Assembly: GCA_030692375.1 (NCBI GenBank)
Contig: JAUYCD010000109.1
Location: forward strand, 9,221-73,220
Length of the DNA stretch: 64,000 bases
DNA from: Candidatus Latescibacter sp.
GTDB taxonomy: Bacteria > Latescibacterota > Latescibacteria > Latescibacterales > Latescibacteraceae
Reading direction: 5' to 3'
Of this stretch, positions 1 through 57,274 are shown in pieces. Below the pieces are notes generated by a model. It was given only the letters and a program-made list of their open reading frames with translations. It did no database searches and was not told the DNA's origin. The position numbers were made by a program, and so were the translations under genes. Numbering within the stretch: the first letter of the stretch is position 1; every line of letters begins with the position of its first letter.

Positions 1-1318
1 GGGCTGTGGTCAGGGTGGTCGCCAGGTATGAAGCTCCGTGAACGCCGAACAGGAATTCCTCGTTGATGATCCGCCCCTTCAGTTCCGGGAAGGGGCCGGT
101 TCCGTGGTTGACCGGGCTGATATTGGGCAGGACGAAACAGTCGGCGGCCTCTGCCATACGTAAAAGGAGGCGCTCCCAGGGCTGGCTGAGCTTGTCGAAG
201 CCAGCCCCGATCGAGAATATTTTCCCCCTCGATTCAGTCAACTTTTTCATGTGACGGAAATCATTCCCGCCGCCGTAACGGGCGGTGACCACCGGTTCGC
301 CGTCCACTGTGCCCTGTACGAGAAGGTCGCGCCGCCAGCCGTCCGCAGGCAGGCTGAGCTTGTCGCACTTCGACAAGCTCAGTGCTCGGCCGCTGGCTGA
401 GCCTGTCGAAGCCAGCTTGTCGAAGCCGCCGATCCGGGCGATCATGGTCCAGGTTCCCGCCTCCACCTGGATGACCGAATTTCCTGCAGCCTCCGGGAAA
501 GACTGGTAAAAGGTGGAAATGACCGGGATATGGGAAAGACTGGTGTCATGTCCCCCGGGAATGACTGTAACCGGGCAGGAGAGGCCGAATACGGCAGCCT
601 GTCCGGAGGGCATGAAAGCGAGCGGCCGATATACTACCGCTGTCTCACGGGGTATCAGGCGGCTGAATGATGACAGCTTGACAGCCAGGCTGCTCGGTGC
701 GCCGGGGCGCTCGCGGATGTTCCGTGCGCCGGAATGGCACATCCAGTAGCTGTGTTCGTTGCCTGCCTTTTTCACCGCGTACAGGTAGTTCTCGCCGATA
801 AAGTGCCCGGACATCAGGGCGCCGTAGGTTCCGAATCCCGCTGTTTTTTTCAGAAGTTCCGGGCGTTCCATCTCCTCGAAGAGGAGCCGCTTAATAAGGG
901 TGAGGCTCCCCGGAAAGTCGCGAATGGAGCCGGTTTCGAGAAAGAATTCTTCGGCGCTTCCGGCCAGTTCGCAGAACCGGTCTTCAACCGCATCGGGGTA
1001 TCTCTGCGTGTAAGACAGTGTCAAGCCCTCGCCCGGCGCTTCTACCAGCGTATTGTCGTACCCGACCAGCCCGCCGGACGCTCCCCTGGCCGCCGGTGCG
1101 ATGACCGCGCAATTTTTCATCTTTTCGGGCAGGGACCTTATGGTGGCATCGAACCAGGCGAACTCCTCCCCGGTGGCGTTATAGGCTAAATTATCCACCT
1201 GACGGACCGGTGTGGCTGCGCCCTGCGAATAGACGCTCTCGAGGGTCTCGAAATCGAACACCTCGAGTTTGATATTGGAGGCGCCGTCTACCGGCACGAT
1301 GATGGTTTTGAGGGGCAT
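1..1318 (-). CDS. FGGY-family carbohydrate kinase, rhamnulokinase/fuculokinase-like; 3' end runs off the window start
   Basis: Hand translation of the minus strand from the ATG at 1316-1318 gives MPLKTIIVPVDGASNIKLEVFD.. with no stop down to position 1. The VDGAS..K N-terminal and PGGHDTSLS motifs resemble the rhamnulokinase DLGASSGR and HDTASA signatures. It lies downstream of the rhamnosidase on the same strand. It is absent from the ORF track because the window truncates it. Confidence 0.5.
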   Translation of the reverse strand, partial: MPLKTIIVPVDGASNIKLEVFDFETLESVYSQGAATPVRQVDNLAYNATGEEFAWFDATIRSLPEKMKNCAVIAPAARGASGGLVGYDNTLVEAPGEGLTLSYTQRYPDAVEDRFCELAGSAEEFFLETGSIRDFPGSLTLIKRLLFEEMERPELLKKTAGFGTYGALMSGHFIGENYLYAVKKAGNEHSYWMCHSGARNIRERPGAPSSLAVKLSSFSRLIPRETAVVYRPLAFMPSGQAAVFGLSCPVTVIPGGHDTSLSHIPVISTFYQSFPEAAGNSVIQVEAGTWTMIARIGGFDKLASTGSASGRALSLSKCDKLSLPADGWRRDLLVQGTVDGEPVVTARYGGGNDFRHMKKLTESRGKIFSIGAGFDKLSQPWERLLLRMAEAADCFVLPNISPVNHGTGPFPELKGRIINEEFLFGVHGASYLATTLTTA

Positions 1319-4326: not shown

Positions 4327-4552
4327 GGTATTCATCCTCAAAAAGTGTATGTAATAGATGCCAAAACAGGATAGTATGACGTCAGTAAATATCATTGTTT
4401 AACGCCGAATCAATAGATGCCGAAACGGTTTTATCGTTCCCGCGAAGCGGCAACAAGTTCGGCATGACATGTTCATTTTGGGCAAAATCATAGGGCAGGC
4501 ACGGGGACCTGCCCCTACAATGTGCTCCAATTCTGTCTTCTGTCTTCTATCT

Positions 4553-6115: not shown

Positions 6116-6198
6116 ATACTCCCCTTGGAAAAAAGATCCCCCTGTCGCCAAAAGCAGCGACATCCCCCTTGTCGAAGGGGGATAAAAGAAAAAAAATA

Positions 6199-6254
6199 GA
6201 TGCCGAAACGGTATCATCGTTCCCGCGAAGAGGCAACAAGTTCGGCATGACATG
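6199..6254. repeat. Palindromic element of the gccgaaac/gttcggc family; a second copy lies at 4417-4470
   Basis: atagatgccgaaacgg..cgttcccgcgaag..ggcaacaagttcggcatgacatgtt is nearly identical at both sites. Confidence 0.7.
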
Positions 6255-6262
6255 TTCTGCCA

Positions 6263-6587
6263 TTACTCAATTAATGATGGTACGGCAAAAAGTCACAGTG
6301 AATGTTATTTTCAGAATGACAAGACAGTATTATATGTTTTATTGTGCATACTATACTATTGAAAACTCACCCCCTGACCCCCTCTCTTGAAAATAGAGGG
6401 GGAGAACCATCTGCTTCTTAAAATACGTATTATCAACAAAATAACTAACTCAAAGTCGTACCCCCTCTCTTATTAAGAGAGGGGATCAAGGGGTGAGTTA
6501 TCTCCAAAAAATGAGATTGTATAGTGTTCTAATGTCTTGATGAATATTTTCTGAATTCTTTTTTGCCGTATCATCAATTAATGATAG
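6263..6587. repeat. MITE-like element: imperfect 28-bp terminal inverted repeats (ttactcaattaatgatggtacggcaaaaagt / cttttttgccgtatcatcaattaatgatag) enclosing GC-rich hairpin repeats
   Basis: TIRs read at 6263-6292 and 6559-6587. Inside are ccccctctcttgaaaatagaggggg and ccctctcttattaagagagggg hairpins flanked by cacccc/ggggtgag. Confidence 0.5.
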
Positions 6588-9957: not shown

Positions 9958-11034
9958 TCAGCCCAGCGGATAGTTCCCATATTCCCGGACGGCGCCGTAA
10001 AATGCAAGGATATTTTCCAGCGGCACGTCCGGCTGAAAATTGTGCGAAGGCCCCAGGATAAGTCCCCCGCCTGGCCCGACCGTCCTGATACGCAGTTTCA
10101 CTTCTTCCTCTACATCATGGGGAGAGCCAAAGGGCATTACATCCTGGATATCCACTGTGCCCCAGAAGCTTAGATTTTTTCCGAAGCGCTGTTTCAGGTG
10201 CGCCGGGTCCATGGATTTCGGCTGGACGGCGTTCAGGATATCCACACCGATTTCGATGTATTCGGGAAGGAGGCTTTCGATGTTGCCGTCGCTGTGGTAG
10301 GCGATTTTCACATCGGGCTCTATCTTCCGGAATTCCTGTATCAGTGAGGCATACCGGGGTTTGAAGAATTCCCGCCATGTATCCGGAGAAACGATGAGTG
10401 AATGCTGGGTTCCGAAGTCATCCCCCAGCCAGAGAATATCCACTCCGAGTCCTGCAAGGGTCTTGCCGGTAACCAGTTGAAAGCCGTAAAGCTTATCCAG
10501 GAGAGCATGGGCGAAATCCTTGTTCAGCATCAGGTCTGCCAGGAATTCCTCATAACCGCGCAGATACCAGGCAGCTTCGAACAGGGTGCAGGGCATGCCT
10601 CCGACAATGACATGGGTACTGCCGTGCTCAGTGAGAAGCCTGCGGGCCGAATCATATCTCCAGGATTCGTGAGGGTCGGGACAGGAGAAAGAGGAGAGTT
10701 GGTTTCCATCGCGGAGGGGGCGTTTCACCATCTCCGTGTAGCGGCCGTGCGGGATGTCAACCCAGCGCCAGCCGATCCCCCATTCGCAGGTGTATTCCTT
10801 TTCTTCTCTGGCATAGTAGCTCGTGGCGATACCATGCCAGGCCACCAGGATGTCGTGCCCCATGACCAGCGGAAGTTCCGAGACCTTGCCGCTGTAGGCT
10901 TCGGCGGTAGAGTTCCGGAGCCTGAGATGCCGGGAGAGCTTTTCGGCGGCCTCGGGGGTAAAATCCGCATGAATGGGGACCCTGTCCGGCTCTTCGTGGT
11001 TGATGGCGGTCAGAACCCGTTCTCGTGAGGTCAT
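9958..11034 (-). CDS. Uroporphyrinogen-decarboxylase (URO-D)/MtaA-CmuA-family protein, paralogue 1
   Basis: About 358 aa with a URO-D-like fold signature (..EEPDRVPI..GGMPCTLFEAAWYLRGYEEFLADL..). The start is at MTSRERV after AAAGGAAA. Confidence 0.7.
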   Translation of the reverse strand: MTSRERVLTAINHEEPDRVPIHADFTPEAAEKLSRHLRLRNSTAEAYSGKVSELPLVMGHDILVAWHGIATSYYAREEKEYTCEWGIGWRWVDIPHGRYTEMVKRPLRDGNQLSSFSCPDPHESWRYDSARRLLTEHGSTHVIVGGMPCTLFEAAWYLRGYEEFLADLMLNKDFAHALLDKLYGFQLVTGKTLAGLGVDILWLGDDFGTQHSLIVSPDTWREFFKPRYASLIQEFRKIEPDVKIAYHSDGNIESLLPEYIEIGVDILNAVQPKSMDPAHLKQRFGKNLSFWGTVDIQDVMPFGSPHDVEEEVKLRIRTVGPGGGLILGPSHNFQPDVPLENILAFYGAVREYGNYPLG

Positions 11035-11394
11035 GAGTGAGTTTCCTTTTCGATTCATGGAAAAGACAACATCAGGGTTTTCCCCTCGCCCGTTTATGGG
11101 AGAGGAGACATGGGGTGAGGGCAAAAGCGTTTCAGTGCTAAAATTAGGAAAAGCTTCCGTGGAGTCAAGAGTATTTGTCAGAGTGAAGAAAAAAGGCGGA
11201 CAAGATTCCCTGCCATATAGACATTACATATGTCATAATGACATCAGGCCGTATAATTCAAGGGATAATTTGTAATGTACTCTATTCGCATGTAATTATT
11301 AATACAAGAGTTACATTAAATGTACATGCTTGGCGCGTTTTTTGCGCAGATTCTATTACCTAAGAAGATTATAACTTGATAAGGAGGAAGTACT

Positions 11395-13880: not shown

Positions 13881-15545
<1,665 letters not shown>

Positions 15546-15574
15546 AAAAGCAAAAGCAACAAGAAATACCGAAA

Positions 15575-16009: not shown

Positions 16010-16117
16010 ATACAGTACAGGTGGCTGTTGCCTTCTGGATGAAAGCGATTATCTTTGTTGATGCTATGAGAGCGCTTCTTAATGACATTGATGAATGATA
16101 GAGAATCCTGACCTCCG

Positions 16118-16232
16118 GGCAGCGGCTCGCACGGCGGTGGAATGGGTGGAATAGGCAGAATGTACTAAAAAGCAAAAGCAACAAGATATCATGAACGCGC
16201 CTGCGAAAAAAAGCGGGCGCTTTTTTTATTGT
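16118..16232 (+). repeat. Diverged duplicate (about 88% identical) of the groEL 3' end plus terminator (15498-15607), flanking the MNT cassette on the right
   Basis: gggcagcggctcgcacggcggtggaatgggtggaataggcagaatgtactaaaaagcaaaagcaacaag..gcgcctgcgaaaaaaagcgggcgcttttttt compared with the groEL end. Confidence 0.8.
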
Positions 16233-22881: not shown

Positions 22882-23074
22882 ATCCTTCTATCAAACCTGT
22901 TGATTTACCCTCACGATTTTCCTATCTTATTTTTTCCATATTATTTTTACACCTTTGTATAACGTCAAAATTCAACAGTTAATTAATTTATAGAAACTCG
23001 CCCTTGTATTGAACCCGGTTCTTCCCCTCTCTTGAAAGAGAGGGGGCAGGGGGTGAGTTTCAGGAGGTTTGAGT

Positions 23075-24100
23075 ATGATATCCATGGACGGGTTGCGCGG
23101 GCAGTTTCTCCGAGATGTCGAAACTGTGCAGTCCATGAAGGATCTGGAGTCGGTTCAGATACAATACCTGGGCCGGAAAGGGCTTCTGGCGGAGTTCCGC
23201 AAGAATGTGGATTTCCGGGCATTGAGCGAGGAGGAACGGGGCGCGCTCGGCAAGAGCTTCAACGACCTTAAAAACCTGATGGAGAACTCCCTCGGTGAGG
23301 CGAAGAGCAGGCTGGAGTCGGCGGCAACAGTGTCCGGGCCGTGCATCGACCTGACCCTGCCCGGCGCCGGGCAGTCGCTCGGATCGCTCCATCCGATCAC
23401 CCTGGTGCAGATGGAATTGGAGAACATCTTCATGAGCATGGGTTTTGCCATCGAGACCGGTTTCGATGTGGAGACGGAGTACTATAACTTCGACTCCCTG
23501 AACATCCCGTTCGATCACCCGGCAAGGGAGATGCAGGACACTTTCTGGCTGACCAACGGCATGCTCTTGAGGACTCATACTTCGGCCAACCAGGTTCGCG
23601 CCCTGGAAAAGTACGGCGTCCCCATGAAAGTCATTTTCCCAGGGCGGTGCTTCCGCTATGAAGCCATCGACGCCAACCATGAGAACACCTTTTACCAGCT
23701 CGAAGGTCTGATGGTGGACAGAGACATTTCGGTCGCCCACCTTATCAGCGTCATGAAAACCCTTCTCGCCGAAGTGTTCCACCGTGAGGTAGAAGTACGG
23801 CTGCGGCCGGGATATTTCCCTTTCGTGGAGCCCGGTTTCGAGCTGGACATCAAGTGTCTCATCTGCGACGGCGGGGGATGCCGTTCATGCAAGGAGGCCG
23901 GCTGGCTGGAGCTTCTCCCCTGCGGCCTCGTGCATCCAAACGTGCTCCGGTACGGCGGAGTGGACCCGGAGAAATGGAGCGGGTTTGCGTTCGGTCTGGG
24001 ACTTACCCGTCTGGCCATGATGAAATTCGGGATTCCAGACATTAGGCTGTTCAATCTTGGTGATATCAGGATGCTGGATCAGTTCCCGGCGACAGTGTGA
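23075..24100 (+). CDS. pheS: Phenylalanine--tRNA ligase alpha subunit
   Basis: FDHPAREMQDTFWL, FRYEAIDANHENTFYQLEGLMVD, GFAFGLGLTRLAMMKFGIPDIR; CAGGAGG RBS. Confidence 0.95.
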   Translation: MISMDGLRGQFLRDVETVQSMKDLESVQIQYLGRKGLLAEFRKNVDFRALSEEERGALGKSFNDLKNLMENSLGEAKSRLESAATVSGPCIDLTLPGAGQSLGSLHPITLVQMELENIFMSMGFAIETGFDVETEYYNFDSLNIPFDHPAREMQDTFWLTNGMLLRTHTSANQVRALEKYGVPMKVIFPGRCFRYEAIDANHENTFYQLEGLMVDRDISVAHLISVMKTLLAEVFHREVEVRLRPGYFPFVEPGFELDIKCLICDGGGCRSCKEAGWLELLPCGLVHPNVLRYGGVDPEKWSGFAFGLGLTRLAMMKFGIPDIRLFNLGDIRMLDQFPATV

Positions 24101-24120
24101 AAATAAAGTGACAAAGTAAA

Positions 24121-24272
24121 AACTGTCTGAACCATGATTCGCTTGATTTCATGATTACCATGATTAGATGCCGAAACGAGTTCGGCATGACACGTGTCAC
24201 CCTGAACTTGTTTCAGGGTCATCATGGTAATCCTTGAATCCCATGAATCATGGTTCAGACAATCTGTGAGAA
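24121..24272. repeat. Nested palindromic compound element filling the pheS-pheT spacer
   Basis: Outer inverted repeat ctgtctgaaccatgattc/gaatcatggttcagacaatc, middle inverted repeat catgattaccatgat/atcatggtaatc, and a central gccgaaac..gttcggc-atgacacgtgtca-ccctgaac..gtttcaggg core. Confidence 0.75.
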
Positions 24273-24287
24273 AGGGTTGAATTTTTC

Positions 24288-26855
24288 ATGAAACTTTCGC
24301 TCGAATGGCTCGGACAGTATGTTGACCTTGCCGACCTTTCACCAAAAGATATCGCCTATAAACTGACCATGTCCACCGCTGAGGTCGAGGATGTGGAAAT
24401 ACTGAAACGCGCGGTGAAAGGGATTATAGCCGGAGAGATTATCGAGATTGAACCCATCGATACCGGCGACAGCGGCAAACTCATGCAGTATGTCACTGTG
24501 AACACCGGCGCGGAAACCTTCAAAACCGTTTGCGGCGCGCCCAATGTGAAACCGGGCATGAAATCCGCGTTCGCCGCCCCCGGCGCTGTCATCGCTGACA
24601 ATTTTTTAGTGCAGGAGCAAAAGGTCTTCGGCCTCATGAGCCGGGGAATCCTTTGCAGTCCGAAAGAGCTGGGCTGGGGCGAATCTCACGCCGGGATAAT
24701 TGCGTTTCCGGACAGTCTGCCAAAAGGAACCGAGCTTGCCTCCCTCGTTCCCGAATACGACCATGTCATCGAGATCGACAACAAGAGCATCACGCATCGC
24801 CCCGACCTCTGGGGTCATTACGGTTTCGCGCGGGAGATGGCCGCCATCTACGGGCGTAGTCTTAAACCGCTGGAGTTGATCGATGCTTCGGAAGGAAATG
24901 ACCTGCCTCCCTTCCCCCTGCGTATCGATGACCGTGAGGGCTGCCCTGGGTATTGCTGCCTGGAAATCGACGGCCTTTCTCCGGCTTTTTCGCCGGTGGA
25001 GATGCAGTACCGTCTCCTGGCGGTAGGTCTCCGGCCTATTAACCTGCTGGTAGACTTGACCAATTACCTGATGTGCGAGCTGGGGCAGCCCATGCACTCG
25101 TTCGACGGCGAGAGGGTGAGGGATATTATCGTTGCTCCCTTCGGAAAAATCGGCGCCTACCAGACACTGGACAGTGTGGAGCGGAAGATGATTCCCGAAG
25201 ACCTGATGATCTGCGACCATGACGGCCCCATTGCTCTGGCCGGTATCATGGGCGGCGAGGATTCGGAGGTAAAAGAGGGGACTTCACGGGTGCTTCTGGA
25301 AAGCGCCAATTTCAATCCCGCCCGCATCCGGAGGACCATGATCCGTCTCGGGCTGCGCACCGACGCCGGAGTCCGGTTTGAAAAGGGACAGCCGCCCTAT
25401 CACATGGCTCTTTCCATACGGCGTTTCGTTCATCTCCTCCGCGAGGCGGGGCAGAAAGCGAGGCTCCGCTCGCAGCTTACCTGCGGGGGTGATACCGGAG
25501 AAAAAGGCCGCCTTTTGTCCATGGATAAATCGGACCTGACTCGTTCCATCGGTATGGCGATCCCTGACGGGCGGGTGCGGAAGATTCTCGTTTCGCTCGG
25601 CTTCGAATGCACGATCAACGACAAGGAGATTCTCCTTGTTATCCCGCCGCACCGGAGTGCGAGGGACATTTCCATTCCCCGCGACATTGTCGAGGAGGTA
25701 GCCCGCATCTACGGCTACGACAATATTGTCCCGTCCATGCCTGATATGAAGATGCGGTCCGGTACATTTAATACCGAACTCCAGAAACAGCATAAAATCC
25801 GCCGATTCCTGAGCCAGGCTAAGGGATTTTCAGAGGTCCATACCTACAGTTGGTATGATGACATATGGCTCAAACGGATGGCATACAACCCGGGAGAGAC
25901 GCTGACCCTGGTGAATCCCGCCGCTGAGAACAACACCCGTATGCGCCGTGAGCTTATTCCGAACCTTTTGGAACTGGTGGAAATGAATGCGGTTCACCGC
26001 GACACTATCTCATTTTATGAAATAGGCAACGTGTTCCATCCCGCTCTTCGGCAGGCTCAGAGCCCACTGAACTCTGAGCTTGTCGAAGAGTCGAATGGTT
26101 TCCGGCAAGCCATGCATCTGGGAGGAGTGGTTTATCAAACGGAAAAAATCGGGAATCTCCAGGAACTTTTCCTGCGTGTAAAAGGGACTGTGGAGGAGAT
26201 ATGCGCATTTACGAATGCGGGGATTCCGGAATTCACCGCCTCGCACTCTTCGGCAGGCTCAGAGCCCACTGATCGAGCACTGAGCTTGTCGAATCGAGCA
26301 CTGAGCTTGTCGAATCAAGCACTGAGCTTGTCGAATCGAGCACTGAGCTTGTCGAAGTCCGCCAAACCCTGGACTGTACCAGGCTCTTATCTCAATATTC
26401 ATATTGGTGATTCCTCCGCAGGGCAGATCGGGTATCTTACAGGCAATCTTTTGAACCTTTACGAGCACTTAACGCAGATTGTCTGGTTCGAGCTCCTGGT
26501 GGATGTCCTGGCCGGGCCGACTTTCCCCGATGTATTGTATAGCGAGATACCGGTGTACCCCGGTTCCTGGATGGATTTCTCCGTTTTAGCGGATAAGAAT
26601 CTGAGCTATGCCGTTTTGGGGGAAAGCATAAGGAAGTTTACTCATCCGATTCTCCGAAAGGTAAAGTACCTGTATCTTTTCAGCGGAAATATTAAGGGGG
26701 GAGAAAAAGGCCTGCCGGAAGGCGAAAAAAAAATTTCCTATACATTCCGTTTCTGGCTCGGGCTGAAGGATAGAACTTTGACTGGAGATGATCTATCACA
26801 ATTTAGGGAGTTTTTCCTTCGCTATCTGGAAGAAAACGGACTTGCGCTAAGATAA
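24288..26855 (+). CDS. pheT: Phenylalanine--tRNA ligase beta subunit carrying in-frame repeat-element insertions
   Basis: Domain order is typical of PheT (N-terminal tRNA-binding, B3/B4, B5, C-terminal). At 855 aa it is about 50 aa longer than usual because of the repeat-encoded segments ..RQAQSPLNSELVEES.. and ..SHSSAGSEPTDRALSLSNRALSLSNQALSLSNRALSLSKS.. Confidence 0.93.
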   Translation: MKLSLEWLGQYVDLADLSPKDIAYKLTMSTAEVEDVEILKRAVKGIIAGEIIEIEPIDTGDSGKLMQYVTVNTGAETFKTVCGAPNVKPGMKSAFAAPGAVIADNFLVQEQKVFGLMSRGILCSPKELGWGESHAGIIAFPDSLPKGTELASLVPEYDHVIEIDNKSITHRPDLWGHYGFAREMAAIYGRSLKPLELIDASEGNDLPPFPLRIDDREGCPGYCCLEIDGLSPAFSPVEMQYRLLAVGLRPINLLVDLTNYLMCELGQPMHSFDGERVRDIIVAPFGKIGAYQTLDSVERKMIPEDLMICDHDGPIALAGIMGGEDSEVKEGTSRVLLESANFNPARIRRTMIRLGLRTDAGVRFEKGQPPYHMALSIRRFVHLLREAGQKARLRSQLTCGGDTGEKGRLLSMDKSDLTRSIGMAIPDGRVRKILVSLGFECTINDKEILLVIPPHRSARDISIPRDIVEEVARIYGYDNIVPSMPDMKMRSGTFNTELQKQHKIRRFLSQAKGFSEVHTYSWYDDIWLKRMAYNPGETLTLVNPAAENNTRMRRELIPNLLELVEMNAVHRDTISFYEIGNVFHPALRQAQSPLNSELVEESNGFRQAMHLGGVVYQTEKIGNLQELFLRVKGTVEEICAFTNAGIPEFTASHSSAGSEPTDRALSLSNRALSLSNQALSLSNRALSLSKSAKPWTVPGSYLNIHIGDSSAGQIGYLTGNLLNLYEHLTQIVWFELLVDVLAGPTFPDVLYSEIPVYPGSWMDFSVLADKNLSYAVLGESIRKFTHPILRKVKYLYLFSGNIKGGEKGLPEGEKKISYTFRFWLGLKDRTLTGDDLSQFREFFLRYLEENGLALR
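26262..26345 (+). repeat. Four tandem copies of the 21-nt unit cgagcactgagcttgtcgaat inside the pheT reading frame
   Basis: Read directly from the sequence. The same gagcttgtcgaa/ttcgacaagctc core recurs at 26072-26088, 186-200, 350-430 and 56106-56160. Confidence 0.85.
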
Positions 26856-26861
26856 AGACGG

Positions 26862-26925
26862 TTACCTCACCCCGGCCCTCTCCTAATTAGGAGAGGGTGC
26901 CCGAAGGGCGGGTGAGGTTTTAGGT
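26862..26925. repeat. cctcaccc..ccctctcctaattaggagaggg..gggtgagg palindromic element after pheT
   Basis: Same family as 37036-37140, 40228-40345 and 48150-48270. Confidence 0.7.
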
Positions 26926-26960: not shown

Positions 26961-28277
26961 ATGAAATCACGATTCAGTTCGATAGTCACCGCTACTCGAA
27001 ATTTCCTCGTTTCGATGCTCCTCTGGACCTACGCCGGTTTCGTGCTGTTCACCTGGTATGTTGCCCGTCTGACTCCTGACTGGGCTGTTCTTCTAAGGGT
27101 GTCTGCCAGTATCCTGAACGACCTTATCTGGATACCTCTGGGAATCATCTTATGGAGCCGGGCGTTCATGCTCTTTTCCGGGATAACCGGTAAAAGCCCA
27201 TTTAAAAGCTTTATACTCTCTTTTTTCATTGTCACTGGGATTTCTCTATTCGTTATCATTTTACCGGATATTTCATTCAAATTTCTGTTTATTCCTCTTG
27301 CGCTTACCATCCTTGCATTTATCCATGCATTGTTTACCAGGCGGCATGGTCATCCAGAACTTGTTTCAGGATCTATTTTGAAAAGGTATGTTCCGCTCTC
27401 ACTGATTATTCTTCTGACTGTTTTCCATTACCGGTATCAGATGCTCCCCCATAGAATTGAGGCGCGGTCGGGTATTGATATCAAGGTCATGAGTTATAAC
27501 ATTTATTGCGATGGCGGACGGGCTGACCGTGAAAAAGCGATCGAGACTATCCGGGACGAAGGCGCCGATGTAGTGTGCTGCATGGAATTCAACATCATCA
27601 CAGACAATGAGATATTCAGCCGTGAGCTGGGCGGTCTTTATCCTTACAAAGTGCTCAGCGGAGATCCCCGGGAATCGAAAAGCGGGGCGATAATTCTTTC
27701 AAAGTTCCCTGTTACTGTCGAAAAATTGCCTGATAACAAAGGCAACTGGAGCCACCGCATCGAACTGATTCTGGCGGAAGTGGACATGAAAGGAAAGAAA
27801 ATCCATATCTTGAATTACCACCTGAAGTCTGTTGGTCACTATATCGAGTATGTTGCTGACAAAAAGCTGGATTTCAAAAAGAAAATGGATTTCGCAGCCA
27901 GAAATGAGGTGATTTTTGACCGGGAGAAGTATACCCAGGCGAAATATATCGAGAATTTGATCACCACCTCCTCGGAGCCGGTTATCCTCTGCGGTGATTT
28001 GAACGATACTCCCAACAGCCGGGCGTTTCATGTCCTGGAAAAGAAGTACACCAACACCTTTTCCGCCCGAGGCTGGGGATTGGGAGCGACCTTTGGTGAA
28101 GAGAGGATGAAGGTCAAGCTGCGTAATAAACGGTTTATTTCCTTCCTGGCTCGGGATGTGTTACGGATCGACCACATCTTTGTCACCAAAGGCATGCGGG
28201 TGATCTCCGCAGAAGTCCTGAGCGGCGCCAGGGGTTCCGATCATAAACCAGTGGTAGCGGTAGTGCAAATAAAGTAA
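26961..28277 (+). CDS. Membrane-anchored endonuclease/exonuclease/phosphatase (EEP) family hydrolase
   Basis: N-terminal TM helices; the C-terminal part has KVMSYNIYCDGG, ILCGDLNDTPNS and GSDHKPVVAVVQIK, the EEP catalytic motifs. Confidence 0.7.
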   Translation: MKSRFSSIVTATRNFLVSMLLWTYAGFVLFTWYVARLTPDWAVLLRVSASILNDLIWIPLGIILWSRAFMLFSGITGKSPFKSFILSFFIVTGISLFVIILPDISFKFLFIPLALTILAFIHALFTRRHGHPELVSGSILKRYVPLSLIILLTVFHYRYQMLPHRIEARSGIDIKVMSYNIYCDGGRADREKAIETIRDEGADVVCCMEFNIITDNEIFSRELGGLYPYKVLSGDPRESKSGAIILSKFPVTVEKLPDNKGNWSHRIELILAEVDMKGKKIHILNYHLKSVGHYIEYVADKKLDFKKKMDFAARNEVIFDREKYTQAKYIENLITTSSEPVILCGDLNDTPNSRAFHVLEKKYTNTFSARGWGLGATFGEERMKVKLRNKRFISFLARDVLRIDHIFVTKGMRVISAEVLSGARGSDHKPVVAVVQIK

Positions 28278-35556: not shown

Positions 35557-35628
35557 ATTTAGATCCTGAAACGAGTTCAGGATGACACGTGTCATGCCGA
35601 ACTTGTTTCGGCATCTATTCCAGGATCA
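35557..35628. repeat. Palindromic element agatcctgaaacgagttcagg-atgacacgtgtcat-gccgaacttgtttcggcatct
   Basis: Near-identical copies occur at 49680-49745 and, split by another repeat, at 56078-56190. A partial copy forms the 5' end of the 58320 gene. Confidence 0.8.
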
Positions 35629-35681: not shown

Positions 35682-36959
35682 ATGAATAAAACTAGCGACA
35701 GTCCATCGGGGTGTTGTACGGGATCTTATCTTTCAAAATCAGATCCCGAAGTTTACGCCCAGATGGTTGAGGAATACGAACGTCAGCGCGGCAGCCTGGA
35801 AATGATAGCCTCGGAGAACTATGTTTCTCCGGCGGTTCTTGAAGCAGCAGGCTCGGTGCTCACCAACAAGTACGCCGAAGGTTATCCGGAGCGCCGTTAT
35901 TACGGCGGGTGCGAGTTTGTGGACAAAGTGGAGAATCTCGCCATCGAGCGCGCCATAAAACTGTTCGGCTGCGACCATGTGAATGTCCAGCCACATGCCG
36001 GTTCTCAGGCAAATATGGCGGCCTACTTTGCTTTAATCAAGCCCGGCGCGAAAATCATGGCCATGGACCTTGTTCACGGCGGCCACCTGACCCACGGCAG
36101 CAAGGTGAATTTCTCCGGTCGCATGTATCAGATCATTCCCTACGGTGTCCGTCCGGGCGACTGCCTCATCGATTATGACGGCCTTGCCCGGAAGGCCCGT
36201 GAAACCAAACCCGACCTGATAGTAGCCGGAGCGACCGCCTATCCAAGGCTGATCGATTTCACCCGATTCCGTGAAATAGCGGATGAAGCCGGGGCAAAAT
36301 TCATGGTGGACGCCGCCCATATAGCCGGACTCATCGCGGGCGGGGTACACCCCAGCCCCATACCCTGCGCGGACATTGTCACCTGCACGACCCACAAGAC
36401 CCTTCGCGGTCCACGCGGCGGAATGATCATGAGCACCGCGGAATTCGGCAGGGCGGTGGACAGGCAGGTTTTCCCCGGCATCCAGGGCGGGCCGCTCATG
36501 CATATCATCGCCGCCAAGGCGGTTGCATTCGGAGAGGCGTTGAAGCCTGAGTTCAAAGCGTATTCAGAAACGGTTGTTTCGAACTGCAGGATTCTTGCCG
36601 ATGTGCTCCTGTCGTACGGTTTCAAGCTCGTTTCCGGCGGTACTGACAACCATCTGATCCTGGTGGATTTCACCGGCGCCGGAATTACAGGAAAAGCCGC
36701 CCAGGAGGCTCTCGGCGTGGCCGGAATTACCGTGAACAAGAACAATGTTCCGTTCGACACCGCCAGCCCGGCAGTAACCAGCGGAATGCGCATCGGCGCC
36801 GCGGCTCTCACCACCCGTGGCATGCGCGCCGGGGAAATGCGCCGTGTTGCCTCCATGATCAAACGGGCGCTGGAATCGATCGATGACGCCGATAATCTCC
36901 TGAAAATCCGTGAGGAAACCCGGGAGATGGCCGAGTCGTTCCCGATATTCGCGTGGTAA
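35682..36959 (+). CDS. glyA: Serine hydroxymethyltransferase
   Basis: ..[30 protein letters not shown].. Confidence 0.95.
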
Positions 36960-37035
36960 AAACAAAGAAGGTAAAGACTGTCTGAACCACTGATAAAAAA
37001 GTATTGTTTACATTATTTTCTGGTGCTTCTATACC

Positions 37036-37140
37036 TCACCCCCTGTCCCCCTCTCCTAGTCAGGAGAGGGGGTAACTCGCGGCGGGCCATGTTATTACCC
37101 TCTCCTAATTAGGAGAGGGTGGCTGAAAGCCGGGTGAGGT
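37036..37140. repeat. Compound palindromic element: cctcaccc outer inverted repeats with cccctctcctagtcaggagagggg and ccctctcctaattaggagaggg hairpins
   Basis: Read directly from the sequence; it lies after glyA. Confidence 0.8.
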
Positions 37141-37162
37141 TTTTCTTCGAAGGGGAAGAACA

Positions 37163-40148: not shown

Positions 40149-40227
40149 TCGTTTGGAATGGGGTGTTTTGCGAATTGAAAATATGATGATGTGGCAAAAA
40201 GTGTTGCAAAGTCTTCAATTCTGTCGA

Positions 40228-40345
40228 AACCTCACCCGGCCTTTGGCCACCCTCTCCTAGACAGGAGAGGGTAAAGACTTGGCTCGCCGTGAGTTACCCC
40301 CTCTCCTGACTAGGAGAGAGGGATAGGGGGTGAGGTTTATAAAGC
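40228..40345. repeat. Compound palindromic element of the ctcaccc/ccctctcctag.caggagaggg family
   Basis: Read directly from the sequence; it lies after the PNP gene. Confidence 0.8.
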
Positions 40346-40536
40346 TGAGTAGGAGGTAAATTATCCTTTATTGCCGGGTAATCAAAATATAAATGGTTTG
40401 GAATTTTTTAATTTCTTATGTAAATTAATTCGATATTTTTCATCATAATGTTAAGGGTCATCCTGAACCTGTTTCCGTACCTTCTTTTCCTCGCTGCAGG
40501 TGAATGCTAATTTGGTATTTCCGAAAGGATATGCAT

Positions 40537-48098: not shown

Positions 48099-48149
48099 AA
48101 GAAAGATACAATTCTCACTAGGGGGCGCTCATACACCCTTCTTCACTGT

Positions 48150-48270
48150 TTTAAACCACACCCCCTGTCCCCCTCTCCTAGTCAGGAGAGGGGGGTAACT
48201 CTTTACGTGCCACATCTTTACCCTCTCCTAATTAGGAGAGGGTGGCCGAAGGCCGGGTGAGGTTTTATCG
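48150..48270. repeat. Compound palindromic element, near-identical to 37036-37140
   Basis: acaccccctgtccccctctcctagtcaggagagggggg..ccctctcctaattaggagagggtggccgaaggccgggtgaggtt. Confidence 0.8.
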
Positions 48271-49679: not shown

Positions 49680-49745
49680 TTGCTTCGATTTAGATCCTGA
49701 AACAAGTTCAGGATGACACGTGTCATGCCGAACTTGTTTCGGCAT
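49680..49745. repeat. Palindromic cctgaaac/gccgaac element, copy of 35557-35628
   Basis: tttagatcctgaaacaagttcaggatgacacgtgtcatgccgaacttgtttcggcatctat. Confidence 0.8.
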
Positions 49746-49919
49746 CTATAAACGATCACAAATCAGATCGCGAACCTTGTCGAATGGTAAGATAGTAAAA
49801 ATGTAAAATGACCCTTCAACTCGTCAGTATGATTTCAATATCACTCACCGAAGGCGCTTCTGATGCAATGCGCACCAGACAGCCTCATGCTGCTTGACAT
49901 TCATTTTGGAGTATACTCA

Positions 49920-51156: not shown

Positions 51157-52152
51157 ATGAAACCGCGCGATATATTTTTACAGGCGCTGGAGAGAAAACC
51201 GACGTCCCGGCCGGCAACAGGCAGCGCCACTTCCATAGTCACAGTCGACCTGATGGAGAAAACCGGTTTCTTCTTTCCCGATGTGCACTTTGATCCGGGA
51301 AAGATGGCCGGGCTTGCGGAGGCAGGGTATACAGAGCTTGGCTTCGATAATGTCATGCCCCTGTTCAGTGTCAGTCACGAATCGGCGGCCCTGGGCTGCC
51401 GGACCGACTGGGGAAGCATCGACAAGATGCCGGACTGCCGCGGAGGGTTGTACGGGATCGAGGATGAGATCATCATCCCGCCGGATTTTCTTGCCAGGCC
51501 GGAATGCCGTGTTCCGCTTCGAGCGCTTGAAATTCTGAAAAAACGGCATGGCAGCGAGGTCGCGGTGGTCGGGAAGGTATTCGGCCCCTGGACTCTTGGG
51601 TATCACCTGTTCGGAGTGGAGGAATTCCTGATCAACACCATTCTTAATCCGGATGCGGTGAAATGTGCGATCTCAACCCTGAAAGAGGTTACTGTCGCTT
51701 TCGGGAAAGCGCAGATCGAGGCAGGCGCGGACGCCCTGACCCTGGGCGACCATGCCACCAGGGACCTCTGCTCGCCGCTTGCGTACCGTGATTTTCTGAA
51801 AGATGTCCATTTTGAGATCAACGAACGCCTTGCCTGCCCCATAATCCTGCATATCTGCGGGGAAACCGGCGACCGTATCGGGTATATCCGTGAGACTGGC
51901 GTCGCCTGTTTTCATTTCGATTCCAAAGTCCCGGCCGGAACCGCCCGCGAACTGGCTGGTGAGAAGCTCTCGCTCATGGGCGGCACGAGCAATTTCGACA
52001 TAATCCTGAAGGGTACTCCCGAATCCATCGCCGCGGATGTGCGAAAGAAAAAGGCTGTCGGCATCGATATCATCGGCCCGGAATGCGCGGTCCCGCTCAA
52101 TGCGCCATGGAAAAACCTGATGATGATAGCGGAGGAAGTAAAGAGGGGGTGA
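51157..52152 (+). CDS. URO-D/MtaA-CmuA-family protein, paralogue 2
   Basis: ..TSRPATGSATSIVTVDLMEKTG.. and ..ILHICGETGDRIGYIRETGVACFHFDS.. are typical of methylcobamide:CoM-methyltransferase-like URO-D proteins. Confidence 0.7.
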   Translation: MKPRDIFLQALERKPTSRPATGSATSIVTVDLMEKTGFFFPDVHFDPGKMAGLAEAGYTELGFDNVMPLFSVSHESAALGCRTDWGSIDKMPDCRGGLYGIEDEIIIPPDFLARPECRVPLRALEILKKRHGSEVAVVGKVFGPWTLGYHLFGVEEFLINTILNPDAVKCAISTLKEVTVAFGKAQIEAGADALTLGDHATRDLCSPLAYRDFLKDVHFEINERLACPIILHICGETGDRIGYIRETGVACFHFDSKVPAGTARELAGEKLSLMGGTSNFDIILKGTPESIAADVRKKKAVGIDIIGPECAVPLNAPWKNLMMIAEEVKRG

Positions 52153-54243: not shown

Positions 54244-54640
54244 AAAGCAGAATACAGGAGTCAGAATAAAAGACAATTTCTCGCAAAGTTCGCAAAGTTC
54301 GCAAAGAAAGAAATGAAGATGTCTGAACCACGGATAGCCGGGATTGAAGGACAGGATAAAGAGACAAAGACAGGATGAAAAGATATTTTCCCTCTTCTGT
54401 ATTTTGTATACTTTCTTTATCGCTTTTGCGTCTGGATAAATTTATTTACATCCCGTTTATCCGTTCATCCTGACCATCCGTGGTTCAGACAATCTTTCTG
54501 TCTTTTCATCATCTTCTATCACTCACATCACACAAATCAGTGGTTCAGACAATCCTTCATCCTTTTCTTTCCTTTTGACTTTTGCCCCCGGAAAATGTAT
54601 CCTGTATAGAGCATATTTGGAGAAACCGATGAAGGAGGAT
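54244..54640. repeat. 400-bp repeat-dense intergenic region: 3x cgcaaagtt tandem repeat, three gtggttcagacaatc motifs, and caggagtcag motifs
   Basis: Read directly from the sequence. The gtggttcagacaatc motif also occurs at 1340-1357, 24121-24140, 24253-24270 and 36975-36995. Confidence 0.7.
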
Positions 54641-54644
54641 TAAA

Positions 54645-56015
54645 TTGAAATATCTTACCGTGTTCTTGCTGATAGTTCTCTTTCCTTTCCACGCCGGGTC
54701 ACAATCCAGGGGACCGGATTATCAATGGTATACCGAAGGCAATTACATTCCCGCAACACGGGTGAAAGTTGTGTTGAAAAATGTTCTTGATTTCGGCCGT
54801 ACATACTGTCCGGTAATCATCCCTCGAAAAGATTTTCCCATCCCCAATATCAGCGATTTTTACGTGACTGTCGTCGACCCTTCCCTGCCATCGGACACGG
54901 AACCGACCGAGGCGGAGATAAAAGCTGTCGGCGGCTGGAAAACCCGTCAGGAAACCAACGGCCATTATCTTCGGTATCAGCTCGACGATCTTGACAAGGA
55001 CGGGCTATGGGATGAACTGTATTTTGCCTGTGATATAAAGCCAAAGGAAACAAAAACTGTTTATGTATATGTGCAACCGCCTCAGCAATTATGGCTTCGA
55101 GGGCTTTACAGACATGAAACACATTGCATCATAGGCAATTACGAACGCAATTTTATACCCTGGTGGGAATCGGAAGTGATCGGATGGAAAATCGCCACCC
55201 TTACCGATGTGGATTTATTCGGCAAGCGGGAACGTATCATGATAACGCCAATGGAATGCATCGAAAACTGGGCCGGGTATAACAGGCCGTATAGATACGG
55301 CCTGGACATTCTCCTTGTCGGCAGCACTTTTGGAGCAGCCGGGCTCTGCCTTTTTGAAGAGCCGGCCATTCCCGATTCGGTTTCACGGCCAAGATTCAGC
55401 CCCACGAGCAAAGAGGGGCAGTATTATAATACACGGTATTCGCGGGATGTTGTGGTCAACGGCCCCATGAGAAGCATAATCCTTGTCCGAACCATGGACT
55501 GGCGTTCCGGAAAAGGATTGTATGCTCTCGACCAATACTATACCGCTTACGCCGATAAATATTATTCGACCTGCAAGGCGGTATTTAAAACCTTCGTTCC
55601 GGAGGAAAAGAAAACGCTTTTCGGCTGCGGCATGAGAGCCATTATGGATCAATACGACTACTACCAGAAAGGCGGCACGGTCATTTCTTACGGGAAAAAT
55701 GTCGTCATCGAGTCGCCCAGTCCCGATGAAAAAGGGCAGGAAAAGGTGCGGGCTGTTCTTGATTTTGAAGGTCTCGCGCTTGTGGTCAAAGACAAATACA
55801 AACCGCAGTACCAGTATGTTAAATCCTATGGCGGAAACCATTGTTTCAGGATACCGGTTAATGACGAAAAGACCTTTGAATATCTTTTCGCCGGCGCATG
55901 GAGCGAGGGGCTCGACAATAAAAATCGGGAAGCTTTCCAGGATTATGTATTGAAGGCCGCCCAGGAATTCAATAATCCGCTGGACATCGTTGAATACACC
56001 ATTGAAAAGAAATAG
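54645..56015 (+). CDS. Secreted hypothetical protein (456 aa)
   Basis: Signal peptide MKYLTVFLLIVLFPFHAGSQS; no family recognised. Confidence 0.6.
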   Translation: MKYLTVFLLIVLFPFHAGSQSRGPDYQWYTEGNYIPATRVKVVLKNVLDFGRTYCPVIIPRKDFPIPNISDFYVTVVDPSLPSDTEPTEAEIKAVGGWKTRQETNGHYLRYQLDDLDKDGLWDELYFACDIKPKETKTVYVYVQPPQQLWLRGLYRHETHCIIGNYERNFIPWWESEVIGWKIATLTDVDLFGKRERIMITPMECIENWAGYNRPYRYGLDILLVGSTFGAAGLCLFEEPAIPDSVSRPRFSPTSKEGQYYNTRYSRDVVVNGPMRSIILVRTMDWRSGKGLYALDQYYTAYADKYYSTCKAVFKTFVPEEKKTLFGCGMRAIMDQYDYYQKGGTVISYGKNVVIESPSPDEKGQEKVRAVLDFEGLALVVKDKYKPQYQYVKSYGGNHCFRIPVNDEKTFEYLFAGAWSEGLDNKNREAFQDYVLKAAQEFNNPLDIVEYTIEKK

Positions 56016-56077
56016 TTATTTCGTCTTTTCAAACCACTATATATGACGACATAATTATTGCTCATGTTTTGAGTGAT

Positions 56078-56282
56078 TAGATCCTGAAACGAGTTCAGGA
56101 TGACACGTGCACTTCGACAAGCTCAGTGCTCGGTCAGCGGACTCAGAGCCTGTCGAAGAGTCCGCTACATCCTGAACTCGTTTCAGGATCTAATTTTAAA
56201 TCACGGCACAATATTTTTAAATTCAAAAGAAGCAACTATTCTTTTCCCCTCGCCCGCTTACGGGAGAGGGGGCAGGGGGTGA
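56078..56282. repeat. Composite element: a cctgaaac palindrome split by a ttcgacaagctcagtgctcgg..gagcctgtcgaag unit, followed by a cccctcgcccgcttacgggagagggggcagggggtgagg hairpin
   Basis: Read directly from the sequence. It links the pheT-internal repeat family with the intergenic palindromes. Confidence 0.75.
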
Positions 56283-56287
56283 GGGAA

Positions 56288-57274
56288 ATGAACAGGCGAT
56301 ATTTTTTCATGAGCGCGGCTGCACCCGTCCTGGCAGCATCCGGATGTTCGGTGTTATCCGGAGTGAAGATGAAGACCGGAACTATCTCCCGGAAGAAGCT
56401 GGGAAAAACCGGGATCGATGTTTCACAGTTCGGGTTCGGTTCGCACCTGAAACCCGTGCTTATCAAGAATCCGAAGCTCCGTGACCGTATGATCAAAGCA
56501 GGATTCGAGCGAGGGATTTCCACATTCGATGTATACGACCACGGCGGGTATAAACAGTTCGAGCCTATGGGCAAAAGTGTGAGGGGATTCCGAAAGGAAG
56601 CGGTGATTTCACTCTGCGCGGTAAAATCGAACAAGGAAATGCAGGCTGAGATCGATGAGGCCCTTCAGAAATTTTATACCGATTACATCGACCTGTACCG
56701 TACTCAGACGTTGAACGACGAGCGTATCGCCATCCTGGAGAAGAACAGGAAAGCCGGAAAAATCCGTGCTGTCGGAGTTGTGTCCCATGACGCTGTCCAG
56801 ATGTCCGGGTTTGTGGAGAAATATAAGGATGTTCTTGATTTTGTCATGATCGTTTACAATTTCCACCATAGCATCGGCCGCCCTAAAAAAGGCTCCGGGA
56901 TGCCGCCGAATGATTACTCCGCCCTCATACCCCGGTGCTCCGCACTGGGACTGGGTATACTCGGCATCAAACCCATGGGCAGCGACGACATGGTCGCCTT
57001 TGCCTTGAACAAAGGATATTATAAAAAAGGTCCCTCTCTCAGCCATGCCATGCTGAGGTATGCGTTTGCCAATGACCAGATAGACTGCGTTATGACAGCA
57101 ATGAATACTTCCGGAGAGCTGGCGTCCAATCTTGAAGCAGCGTACCGGCCGGCGTTCTCCCGCGAAGAAGAAGCGCTCCTGAGGTCGCTGAACCGCGATG
57201 CAGATTCCATGCGGGCGGAATACCTTACCCCGAAGTACCGCTGGCTGGAGAGTTGGGCTGCCAGAACGGTATAA
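56288..57274 (+). CDS. Aldo/keto reductase with a twin-arginine (Tat) signal peptide
   Basis: MNRRYFFMSAAAPVLAASG, then AKR motifs (..GIDVSQFGFGS.., ..YIDLYR..). Confidence 0.7.
   Translation: MNRRYFFMSAAAPVLAASGCSVLSGVKMKTGTISRKKLGKTGIDVSQFGFGSHLKPVLIKNPKLRDRMIKAGFERGISTFDVYDHGGYKQFEPMGKSVRGFRKEAVISLCAVKSNKEMQAEIDEALQKFYTDYIDLYRTQTLNDERIAILEKNRKAGKIRAVGVVSHDAVQMSGFVEKYKDVLDFVMIVYNFHHSIGRPKKGSGMPPNDYSALIPRCSALGLGILGIKPMGSDDMVAFALNKGYYKKGPSLSHAMLRYAFANDQIDCVMTAMNTSGELASNLEAAYRPAFSREEEALLRSLNRDADSMRAEYLTPKYRWLESWAARTV

Follow-up and report, generated by a model that had tools for sequence, protein, structure and literature searches.

How does a palindromic repeat of an intergenic type come to stand, in frame, inside an essential aminoacyl-tRNA synthetase gene? 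The question is raised by a 64,000-nucleotide stretch of the Candidatus Latescibacter sp. assembly GCA_030692375.1 (contig JAUYCD010000109.1, positions 9,221 to 73,220 of the forward strand), called the window throughout, in which an earlier sequence-only reading had noticed a short palindromic unit in pheT, the gene of the beta subunit of phenylalanine--tRNA ligase, in the gene of an FGGY-type kinase and in non-coding DNA, and had taken it for mobile DNA rather than for a selected protein motif. We found that the unit recurs as DNA and not as peptide, that it interrupts genes whose counterparts in close relatives have clean empty sites, and that it belongs to a hairpin family found across phyla; probably, it is a selfish hairpin repeat whose in-frame copies are the survivors in tolerant loops of their host proteins.

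The unit recurs in the window well beyond chance. Its core GAGCYTGTCGAA occurs 12 times against 0.4 expected, and the 12-mer GAGCTTGTCGAA, allowing at most one mismatch, has 12 matches against 0.41 expected, a number reached in none of 100 shuffles. The copies make up 12-13 hairpin units, distributed over five loci: two in pheT (insertions 1 and 2), two in the FGGY-type kinase gene (K1 and K2) and one intergenic (Table 1). A covariance model (R1), built from 78 copies of other phyla without any window sequence, recovers nine full hairpins (20.6-34.8 bits, E 1e-6 to 6e-3) and three arm-less tandem units in the window, with all its matches confined to the five loci and none elsewhere in the window at E <0.1; by this recovery, the window units belong to the cross-phylum TGAGCYTGTCGAA hairpin family. 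The placements first given for the copies were found again at nearly every site: the single pheT copy at 26076-26087, the kinase copies at 179-207 and 353-424 in a minus-strand open reading frame (ORF) running off the window start, the non-coding copy at 56106-56165, and the flank GGCAGGCTCAGAGCCCACTGA at both pheT sites (26050-26070 and 26252-26272; 0 expected by chance). Both pheT copies lie inside the ORF at 24288..26855(+), of 855 residues, whose translation contains the peptide RALSLSNRALSLSNQALSLSNRALSLSK as reported. The fourfold tandem array in pheT is likewise real, being called by Tandem Repeats Finder (TRF), and only its placement at 26262-26345 was about 10 nt off the actual 26272-26356.

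The reading frame in which the element DNA is translated changes from site to site, which excludes a selected peptide motif, and spread at the DNA level, as originally proposed, is supported. The 27 nt shared by the two pheT inserts are read in the LRQAQSPL frame in insertion 1 and as SAGSEPTD in insertion 2, the forward core gives ELVE in the former and LSLS in the latter, and in the kinase the reverse core becomes FDKL and STGS; overall, element DNA is translated in five different frames, and of the six possible frames of the core one alone contains a stop (C-TGA-GC). The expectation that coding copies would be multiples of three holds for the four of the window (45, 108, net 63 and 24 nt); the intergenic dimer has 58 nt, a length that is not a multiple of three and was obtained by subtracting the empty (62-nt) from the filled (120-nt) form of the palindrome that hosts it (empty copies at 35557-35618, 49688-49749 and 24162-24223). 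The pheT ORF continues in frame through its inserts with orthologous sequence on both sides; among the copies that could be examined, frequent breakage of reading frames in intact genes was not seen. The filled/empty comparison of insertion 1, insertion 2, K1 and K2 revealed no direct target-site duplication; at K1 and K2, 9-12 nt of the target are replaced. Within pheT as within the kinase gene, the two inserts stand about 200 nt apart and share private variants, which points to local re-insertion.

The translated pheT ORF is identical to the NCBI protein [quoted passage not shown], encoded on a contig of 77,762 bp, and pheS (23069..24100) lies directly upstream of it. The window PheT has 855 residues against 795-797 in about 60 Latescibacterota orthologues (55-80% identity), and exactly three private segments in the alignment, of 15, 36 and 8 residues, account for all 59 extra residues; two of the three (45 and 108 nt) are the hairpin repeat. 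Alignment with orthologues, the check that had been suggested for these segments, showed them to be lineage-specific: among 120 homologues, the window PheT is the longest and the only carrier, element-derived peptides (LSLS[KN], ELVE[EG], LRQAQ) occur in no other, a PheT of unrelated taxa with such a segment was not seen in what could be examined, and the short strings DKLS, DKLR or FDKL present in a few homologues stand at unrelated positions. A 41-residue insertion-2 peptide searched against 1.84 billion representative proteins matched only unrelated heptad-repeat proteins, with no similar array, and a 55-residue chimeric query of the translated element found no other carrier protein. At the DNA level, an orthologue (L198, 79% nucleotide identity) has clean empty sites at the pheT insertions, that of insertion 1 reading CATCCTGTT-TCTGAA, with the hyphen marking the site.

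Insertion 1 starts with a reverse-oriented hairpin that has the core variant TTCGGCAGGCTC (model match 26040-26066(-)), followed by the forward hairpin ACTC-TGAGCTTGTCGAA-GAGT (26068-26094), and the two covariance-model matches have E values of 2.6e-5 and 5.9e-5. On the mRNA-sense strand its predicted fold is a hairpin of 21 bp (-35.9 kcal/mol, z -6.6) with two G.U pairs, where the opposite strand has A.C mismatches. Insertion 2 begins with the same 27 nt (CTCTTCGGCAGGCTCAGAGCCCACTGA), after which forward units follow, and encodes SSAGSEPTD(RALSLSN)x3-RALSLS; it equals a dimer of the 45-nt type plus three extra 21-nt units, and the model matches it at 26242-26268(-) and 26337-26363(+), with three more core-only matches. 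The array fits the definition of a variable-number tandem repeat, with copies of one unit arranged head to tail (TRF period 21, 4.0 copies, 96% matches, score 163), and, since its unit starts and ends with TCGA, the three extra units were probably added by replication slippage. A relative's contig (L132) shows an independent 20-nt tandem duplication of the array unit.

An AlphaFold2 model of PheT, made from 76 sequences with a mean predicted local distance difference test score (pLDDT) of 88.5, falls below a pLDDT of 50 only at residues 589-602, 655-691 and 802-806, that is, at the three inserts. Each insert connects two predicted beta-strands, insertion 1 joining E573-585 to E605-618 and insertion 2 joining E647-651 to E701-706. 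The expected surface loops are therefore matched, in this model, by low-confidence and predicted disordered loops between strands, and the inserts appear to leave the fold intact, as is the case for the palindromic repeats of Rickettsia discussed below. The HMMER alignment to solved beta chains of phenylalanyl-tRNA synthetase (PheRS) ends at about residue 584, just before insertion 1; going by a precomputed Pfam list and the general layout of PheRS, we take insertions 1 and 2 to lie in B6/B7 (tRNA_synthFbeta) and the third insert in the FDX-ACB domain. That third PheT insertion, near the C-terminus, consists of 18 + 6 purine-rich nt (26687-26704 and 26724-26729; NIKGGE..EK), lies in the low-confidence loop at residues 802-806 and, by comparison with L198, is unrelated to the hairpin repeat.

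The kinase (locus tag Q8O92_06690), whose full-length product has 553 residues (Pfam FGGY_C_2) against 522-526 in most orthologues, provides an allelic series of its own. K1 holds four cores, including the dimer GCTGGC-TTCGACAGGCTCA-GCCAGC / GAGCAC-TGAGCTTGTCGAA-GTGC (model matches 391-417(+) and 362-388(-)), and puts the peptide FDKLASTGSASGRALSLSKCDKLS in place of SAE. It is also present in the orthologue L003/P0123 (84% identity; 8 of 72 nt differ), from a different metagenome-assembled genome (MAG), GCA_041643175.1, and, in decayed form, in P0125 (72%), and it is missing from the closest orthologue, P0122/L002 (89%), as well as from P0124 (79%). Next to K1, the window and L002 are identical for >70 nt, and L002 has the ancestral AGCGCAGAG where K1 stands. 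K2 is the best model match in the window (34.8 bits, E 1.2e-6), and its arms are near-identical to those of one K1 unit (96% identity, 181-205 vs 392-416); besides adding 24 nt, it rewrites about 12 nt of the left flank, by which the 8-bp stem is formed. At the K2 site, only P0124 has an insert, LDKLSQPF. The kinase inserts are thus patchily present among close orthologues (72-89% identity), and an independent Logan assembly of SRR13727536 (a 2.2-kb contig) agrees with the kinase sequence of the window without a difference over 1318 nt.

At the intergenic locus, the dimer sits between the two heads of a dimer of TGTC-type repetitive extragenic palindromes (REPs; 56075-56194), and its minus-strand fold reaches -80.3 kcal/mol (z -13). 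Its positions 56113-56164 are 88% complementary to 26242-26293 of pheT over 52 nt. The dimer of K1 recurs in the relative's contig L174, where it too is nested, within a different inverted repeat.

The unit itself consists of a near-invariant core, C-TGAGCYTGTCGAA-G, closed by arms of 3-8 bp that are variable yet complementary; the arm pairs of the window are GGGCTGGC..GCCAGCCC, GCAC..GTGC, ACTC..GAGT and GCGGACTC..GAGTCCGC. Single units measure 21-29 nt and divergent dimers 45-60 nt, all window dimers being ordered reverse unit, then forward unit. Among 151 unique copies, Watson-Crick pairing is seen in 88% and 90% at the two pairs next to the 15-mer, compared with 41% and 35% for shuffled sequences (maximum 50%), with several pair types in use and forward-strand G.T wobble in excess; CCGTTCG precedes 31 copies, and many loci have inverted pairs 40-65 nt apart. 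The alignment of 78 sequences has a covariation score of 0.567, whereas shuffles give 0.154 (none of 500 attained the observed score) and slid partners at most 0.166; because two of the six pairs had served to select these 78 sequences, the figures of 88% and 90% are the unbiased ones. Further copies with one or two mismatches number 74 in 877 kb (1.6 expected), and their mismatches cluster at core position 7 (T/C) and at the covarying pairs 1-15 and 2-14, the fixed positions being 3.13 (G.A), 4.12 (A.G) and 5-11 (G-C). This pattern of conservation suggests that the forward strand forms a stem containing sheared G.A pairs in tandem and topped by a CYUGU loop; in the ViennaRNA energy model, the core stays unpaired.

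Outside this genome, with one genome taken per species, CTGAGCTTGTCGAAG is found at at least 120 loci, and the hosts among the matches listed include Chloroflexota, Bacteroidota, Alpha-, Beta- and Gammaproteobacteria, Cyanobacteria, Planctomycetota, Nitrospirota, NC10, Actinomycetota, Armatimonadota, Zixibacteria and bacteria of the candidate phyla radiation (CPR). The core occurs in >10 phyla, and the 15-mer is also present in viral contigs, where 79 of 131 copies have both closing pairs, against about 14% by chance. A 19-mer of the Latescibacter subtype identified 74 metagenomic loci, about half of them from one organism of 60% GC in which the hairpin pair is the central core of a 136-nt transposable element of the miniature inverted-repeat kind (MITE) that has terminal inverted repeats of 16 nt (AGAGTACTCCAC..) and TA on its flanks, present in at least 33 copies (L127-L195, contigs of assembly ERZ1740068, coverage about 27x). 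Fewer cross-phylum copies than random positions stand in long ORFs: open stretches of at least 300 codons hold 40% of the copies, against 70% of random positions. In-frame copies within enzymes nevertheless recur: in an M17 leucyl aminopeptidase (PepA) of a Saccharibacteria MAG (L049, ~3041; +9 residues vs PDB 8pz0), in GalU of a Dehalococcoidia MAG (L078, ~837; +7 residues, PSTSSGQ, vs PDB 5j49) and in a FAD oxidoreductase (L104, ~7466); a dimer, GPELVEGLRQAQ, lies in the family-A DNA polymerase of the cultured Microlunatus endophyticus (L066, 5900-6040), and all four copies fall within a Pfam domain.

Some further forms were seen among these distant copies. A nested or duplicated form, CCCTGAGCAC-TGAGCTTGTCGAA-GTGTCGAAGGG, looking as if one hairpin stood in the centre of another core, recurs in contigs of 33-53% GC (L124, L125, L142, L159, L160, L170, L173, L193, L196 and L197). 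In a CPR genome the hairpin adjoins the 3' end of a tRNA-Glu (L026, 338-430), and in two other contigs (L106, 4440-4550; L185, near 347) it stands beside tRNA-like or T-arm-like sequence; no tRNA or tmRNA was called in L106, and the tRNA-like neighbours were not called by ARAGORN or Rfam.

Among known systems, in-frame palindromic insertion as such is already described, tRNA synthetases included, and what appears to be undescribed is the repeat family itself. At gathering score, Rfam has no match in the window and leaves the motif uncovered in 18 cross-phylum loci, a permissive Rfam search of 55950-56350 gave only chance-level matches with none over the motif at 56106-56165, and a full-text literature search for the DNA strings and translated peptides returned irrelevant matches only and no description of the repeat family. 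In Di Nocera, De Gregorio & Rocco 2013 (PMC3733652), GTAG and CGTC REPs are stem-loop units of 20-40 bp, often inverted dimers and sometimes nested in longer palindromes; some, single or dimeric, lie wholly inside ORFs and code for about 20-30 residues, sometimes twice in one ORF, with tRNA synthetases and DNA polymerase I among the hosts, and CGTC REPs are described as having no dedicated transposase. The present units resemble them in the REP-sized hairpin, the inverted dimers, the nesting and the intragenic singles and dimers; they differ in having no unpaired GTAG or CGTC/TGTC tag and in conserving the 13-nt centre while the arms vary, whereas REPs conserve stem and tag around a loop of 2-5 nt. 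An assignment to GTAG or CGTC REPs was rejected for want of the tag and because the strings are missing from the text and text supplements of PMC3733652, the consensus figures lying outside this comparison.

In behaviour the repeat also resembles the Rickettsia palindromic elements (RPEs; Ogata et al. 2000), which, according to the reviews PMC3184786 and PMC2229807, are palindromic selfish repeats of about 105-146 bp, confined to Rickettsia (RPE-1 to RPE-8), inserted in frame in many genes including essential ones, with no known mobilising enzyme and no target duplication established. As with RPEs, in-frame inserts are missing from orthologues, and the palindromic insertion appears compatible with protein fold and function; the present units, of 21-60 nt (inserts of 21-108 nt), are set apart by size and by host, Latescibacterota, with a core that is cross-phylum. 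In REPIN-RAYT systems (Bertels & Rainey; PMC3337134 and PMC5581495), two inverted hairpins with a short spacer (REPINs) replicate non-autonomously with a REP-associated tyrosine transposase (RAYT); REPINs are lineage-specific, almost exclusively extragenic and have a GTAG-type tag, whereas this tag is missing here and four of the five window loci lie in genes, which departs from the predominantly extragenic placement of REP and REPIN-RAYT sequences. MITEs such as Correia/NEMIS and Nezha (PMC2229807 and PMC3184786) are short, hairpin-folding and able to fuse in frame with ORFs; the window copies differ in having no target-site duplication and in monomers far below MITE size, the only terminal inverted repeats of the window copies being the 12-13 nt cores of the dimers, and monomers insert alone (K2, GalU, PepA). 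The betaproteobacterial repeat element BRE (Hot et al. 2011; PMC3110155) is about 90 bp, forms variable-number tandem arrays and sometimes lies wholly within coding sequence; identity with it was dismissed because the motif is missing from the BRE sequence list. The CIR repeats of Caulobacter and other alpha-proteobacteria (Chen & Shapiro 2003), as described in a review, are about 110 bp with two hairpin arms, a linker and a loop containing a GANTC site, which is not in the core here. By eye, the required positions of the hammerhead core, boxA, integron attC, the tRNA T-arm, group II intron domain V and the K-turn also mismatch.

We consider it likely that the element is a non-autonomous hairpin-forming repeat, REP- or RPE-like in behaviour, and we infer its mobility from filled and empty sites, without a known transposase. 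Copies would be pasted at the DNA level into new sites, often about 200 nt from an existing copy, leaving no target-site duplication and sometimes replacing a few target bases; since the core has its stop (TGA) in only one of six frames, inserts that are multiples of three and fall in tolerant surface loops would survive selection, even in the essential pheT, and the others would be purged. The 21-nt array of pheT would later have grown by slippage between the TCGA ends. The inserts would be neutral passengers, and the copying would be done by a trans-acting enzyme, a single-strand mechanism of the HUH/RAYT type being our leading guess. Several results speak against this explanation and should be kept in mind. 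A Pfam comparison of the 30 largest window ORFs, out of 51 with >=90 residues, shows no transposase, RAYT or other HUH gene, the 30 being housekeeping genes only (dnaK, groEL, pheST, guaA, etfAB, glyA, thrS, infC and others); the coding sites have neither a target-site duplication nor a fixed target sequence; the pheT insertions are known from one NCBI MAG contig, with no second assembly found; and K1 is absent from the closest kinase orthologue and present in a more distant one, so that simple vertical descent plus insertion fails to explain the pattern, which suggests allelic recombination or precise replacement in addition. Finally, that the core hardly varies across phyla while its arms covary agrees more with a functional structured module than with a parasite in decay.

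This last point leads to the most serious rival, which we nonetheless regard as unlikely, namely that the unit is a host-useful structured RNA or single-stranded DNA module (C-G, U-A, tandem sheared G.A/A.G, G-C and a CYUGU loop), recognised by a conserved protein and spread by its function, be it mRNA stabilisation, processing, termination, replication or repair, the coding copies being spill-over or even regulators of pheT translation. For it speak the near-invariance of the core in >10 phyla and viral contigs, the covarying arms with variation restricted to position 7 and to pairs 1-15 and 2-14, the forward-strand G.T wobble excess, the private pheT variant that keeps its 21-bp hairpin only on the mRNA-sense strand by way of the two G.U pairs, and the depletion of cross-phylum copies from long ORFs. 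Against it, no Rfam family covers the motif and no paper on it was found, hairpins of either orientation are found with respect to the host gene, the tandem-GA fold is read from the conservation pattern only with ViennaRNA leaving the core unpaired, and copies come and go between close relatives, so that no locus depends on them. The selfish explanation, which we hold to be the likely one, and this functional one are not mutually exclusive. With more hesitation, as a proposal that we think somewhat more apt to fail than to hold, we suggest that the 13-nt core defines a third, undescribed REP-like superfamily beside the GTAG and CGTC types, with a tandem-G.A hairpin of almost identical sequence in >10 phyla, CPR bacteria and viral contigs; if so, it rides in MITEs and palindromes, inserts with its arms and with no target duplication, and has come to lie repeatedly in frame, in PheT, GalU, PepA and family-A DNA polymerase, and its conservation would imply that some machinery for recognising it, be it an enzyme acting on single-strand DNA or a protein that binds RNA, is widely shared.

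The remaining alternatives are far less probable. An origin of the inserts within pheT and the kinase gene by slippage or duplication of their own sequence, the likeness between loci being due to coincidence or gene conversion, could appeal to the genuine tandem repeat of 21 nt and to the fact that the two inserts of each gene are each other's closest relatives; it is largely refuted, and very improbable, as the empty sites of orthologues have no precursor of the core, the core is also intergenic in the window, in relatives and in other phyla, and the window-free model finds the window copies at E down to 1e-6. Repeat-induced mis-joins in assembly or binning come to mind given that the PheT protein is on one NCBI contig only and that short repeats are classic break and mis-join points; we give this hardly any weight, since the ORF stays in frame with orthologous sequence on both sides, a read is longer than the array (85 nt), the independent Logan assembly has the kinase inserts in identical form, K1 recurs, diverged, in another MAG and in Joint Genome Institute (JGI) proteins, and the phenomenon is also seen in the genome of the cultured isolate L066. 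Equally remote is the idea that the inserted peptides are adaptive in PheRS and the kinase and selected as protein: inserts are indeed retained in an essential gene and the K1 peptide persists in three lineages, but frames differ between sites, the peptides are predicted to be disordered and are missing from all other orthologues, and what is conserved with the intergenic copies is DNA and not peptide, by which this idea is already contradicted.

If the element is a selfish hairpin repeat, then Latescibacterota and an essential aminoacyl-tRNA synthetase join the few known cases of selfish palindromic DNA turned protein. Because close relatives provide clean filled and empty alleles, its gain, loss, local re-insertion and tandem growth can be analysed directly. 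The core is apparently widespread in bacteria and not in Rfam, and would, if upheld, be a common hairpin module; the element also creates many spurious peptides (LSLSK, FDKL, ELVEG, LRQAQ and STSS) and length variants in predicted proteomes. Both the allelic series in an essential synthetase and the cross-phylum core deserve a proper census.

Table 1. Positions of the hairpin repeat and its tandem array in the window
Feature	Position	Strand	Description
pheT insertion 1	26046..26090	+	45-nt dimer; 15 residues, LRQAQSPLNSELVEE; PheT residues 587-601
pheT insertion 2	26247..26354	+	108 nt; 36 residues; PheT residues 654-689
21-nt tandem array	26272..26356	+	unit TCGAGCACTGAGCTTGTCGAA, encoding RALSLSN; in and overlapping the 3' edge of insertion 2
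Intergenic dimer	56109..56166		58 nt; reverse + forward hairpin
Kinase insertion K1	353..424	-	72-nt block for 9 ancestral nt; net +63 nt, 21 residues
Kinase insertion K2	179..207	-	single hairpin GGGCTGGC-TGAGCTTGTCGAA-GCCAGCCC on + strand; net +24 nt, FDKLSQPW

The window also contains three other palindromic families. The one that surrounds the intergenic dimer (family A) fits the definition of CGTC/TGTC-tagged REPs given in PMC3733652, with head-to-head dimers at 24162-24223, 35557-35618, 49688-49749 and 56075-56194 and single arms at 27349-27383, 40448-40491, 4412-4474 and 6195-6257; its unit consists of TGTC, an 8-bp stem starting with AT (ATGCCGAA or ATCCTGAA), a 5-nt loop, the return stem and the 3-nt tail CTA. 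One copy lies between pheS and pheT, and we have not seen this REP type reported for Latescibacterota. A third family, CCCTCTCC-TAnnnA-GGAGAGGG with GGGTGAGG flanks, is found at 6358-6484, 11078-11124, 26846-26921, 37027-37143, 40227-40342, 48149-48266 and 56242-56288, with 116-nt inverted copies 3 kb apart and one copy that begins at the pheT stop codon. A fourth, intergenic family, built on TGTCTGAACCA(C/T)GAT and also forming inverted pairs, occurs at 1339-1375, 24102-24164, 24221-24261, 36958-36994, 54320-54351 and 54460-54570, and two of its arms bracket the REP dimer between pheS and pheT.

Apart from palindromes, three paralogues of the uroporphyrinogen decarboxylase (URO-D) family are encoded in the window, at 9958-11124(-), 51157-52152(+) and 58935-60191(-), and a 75-nt direct repeat of 81% identity is present at 15474-15548, in the GGM-type C-terminal tail of a chaperonin ORF, and again 623 nt downstream, at 16097-16171.

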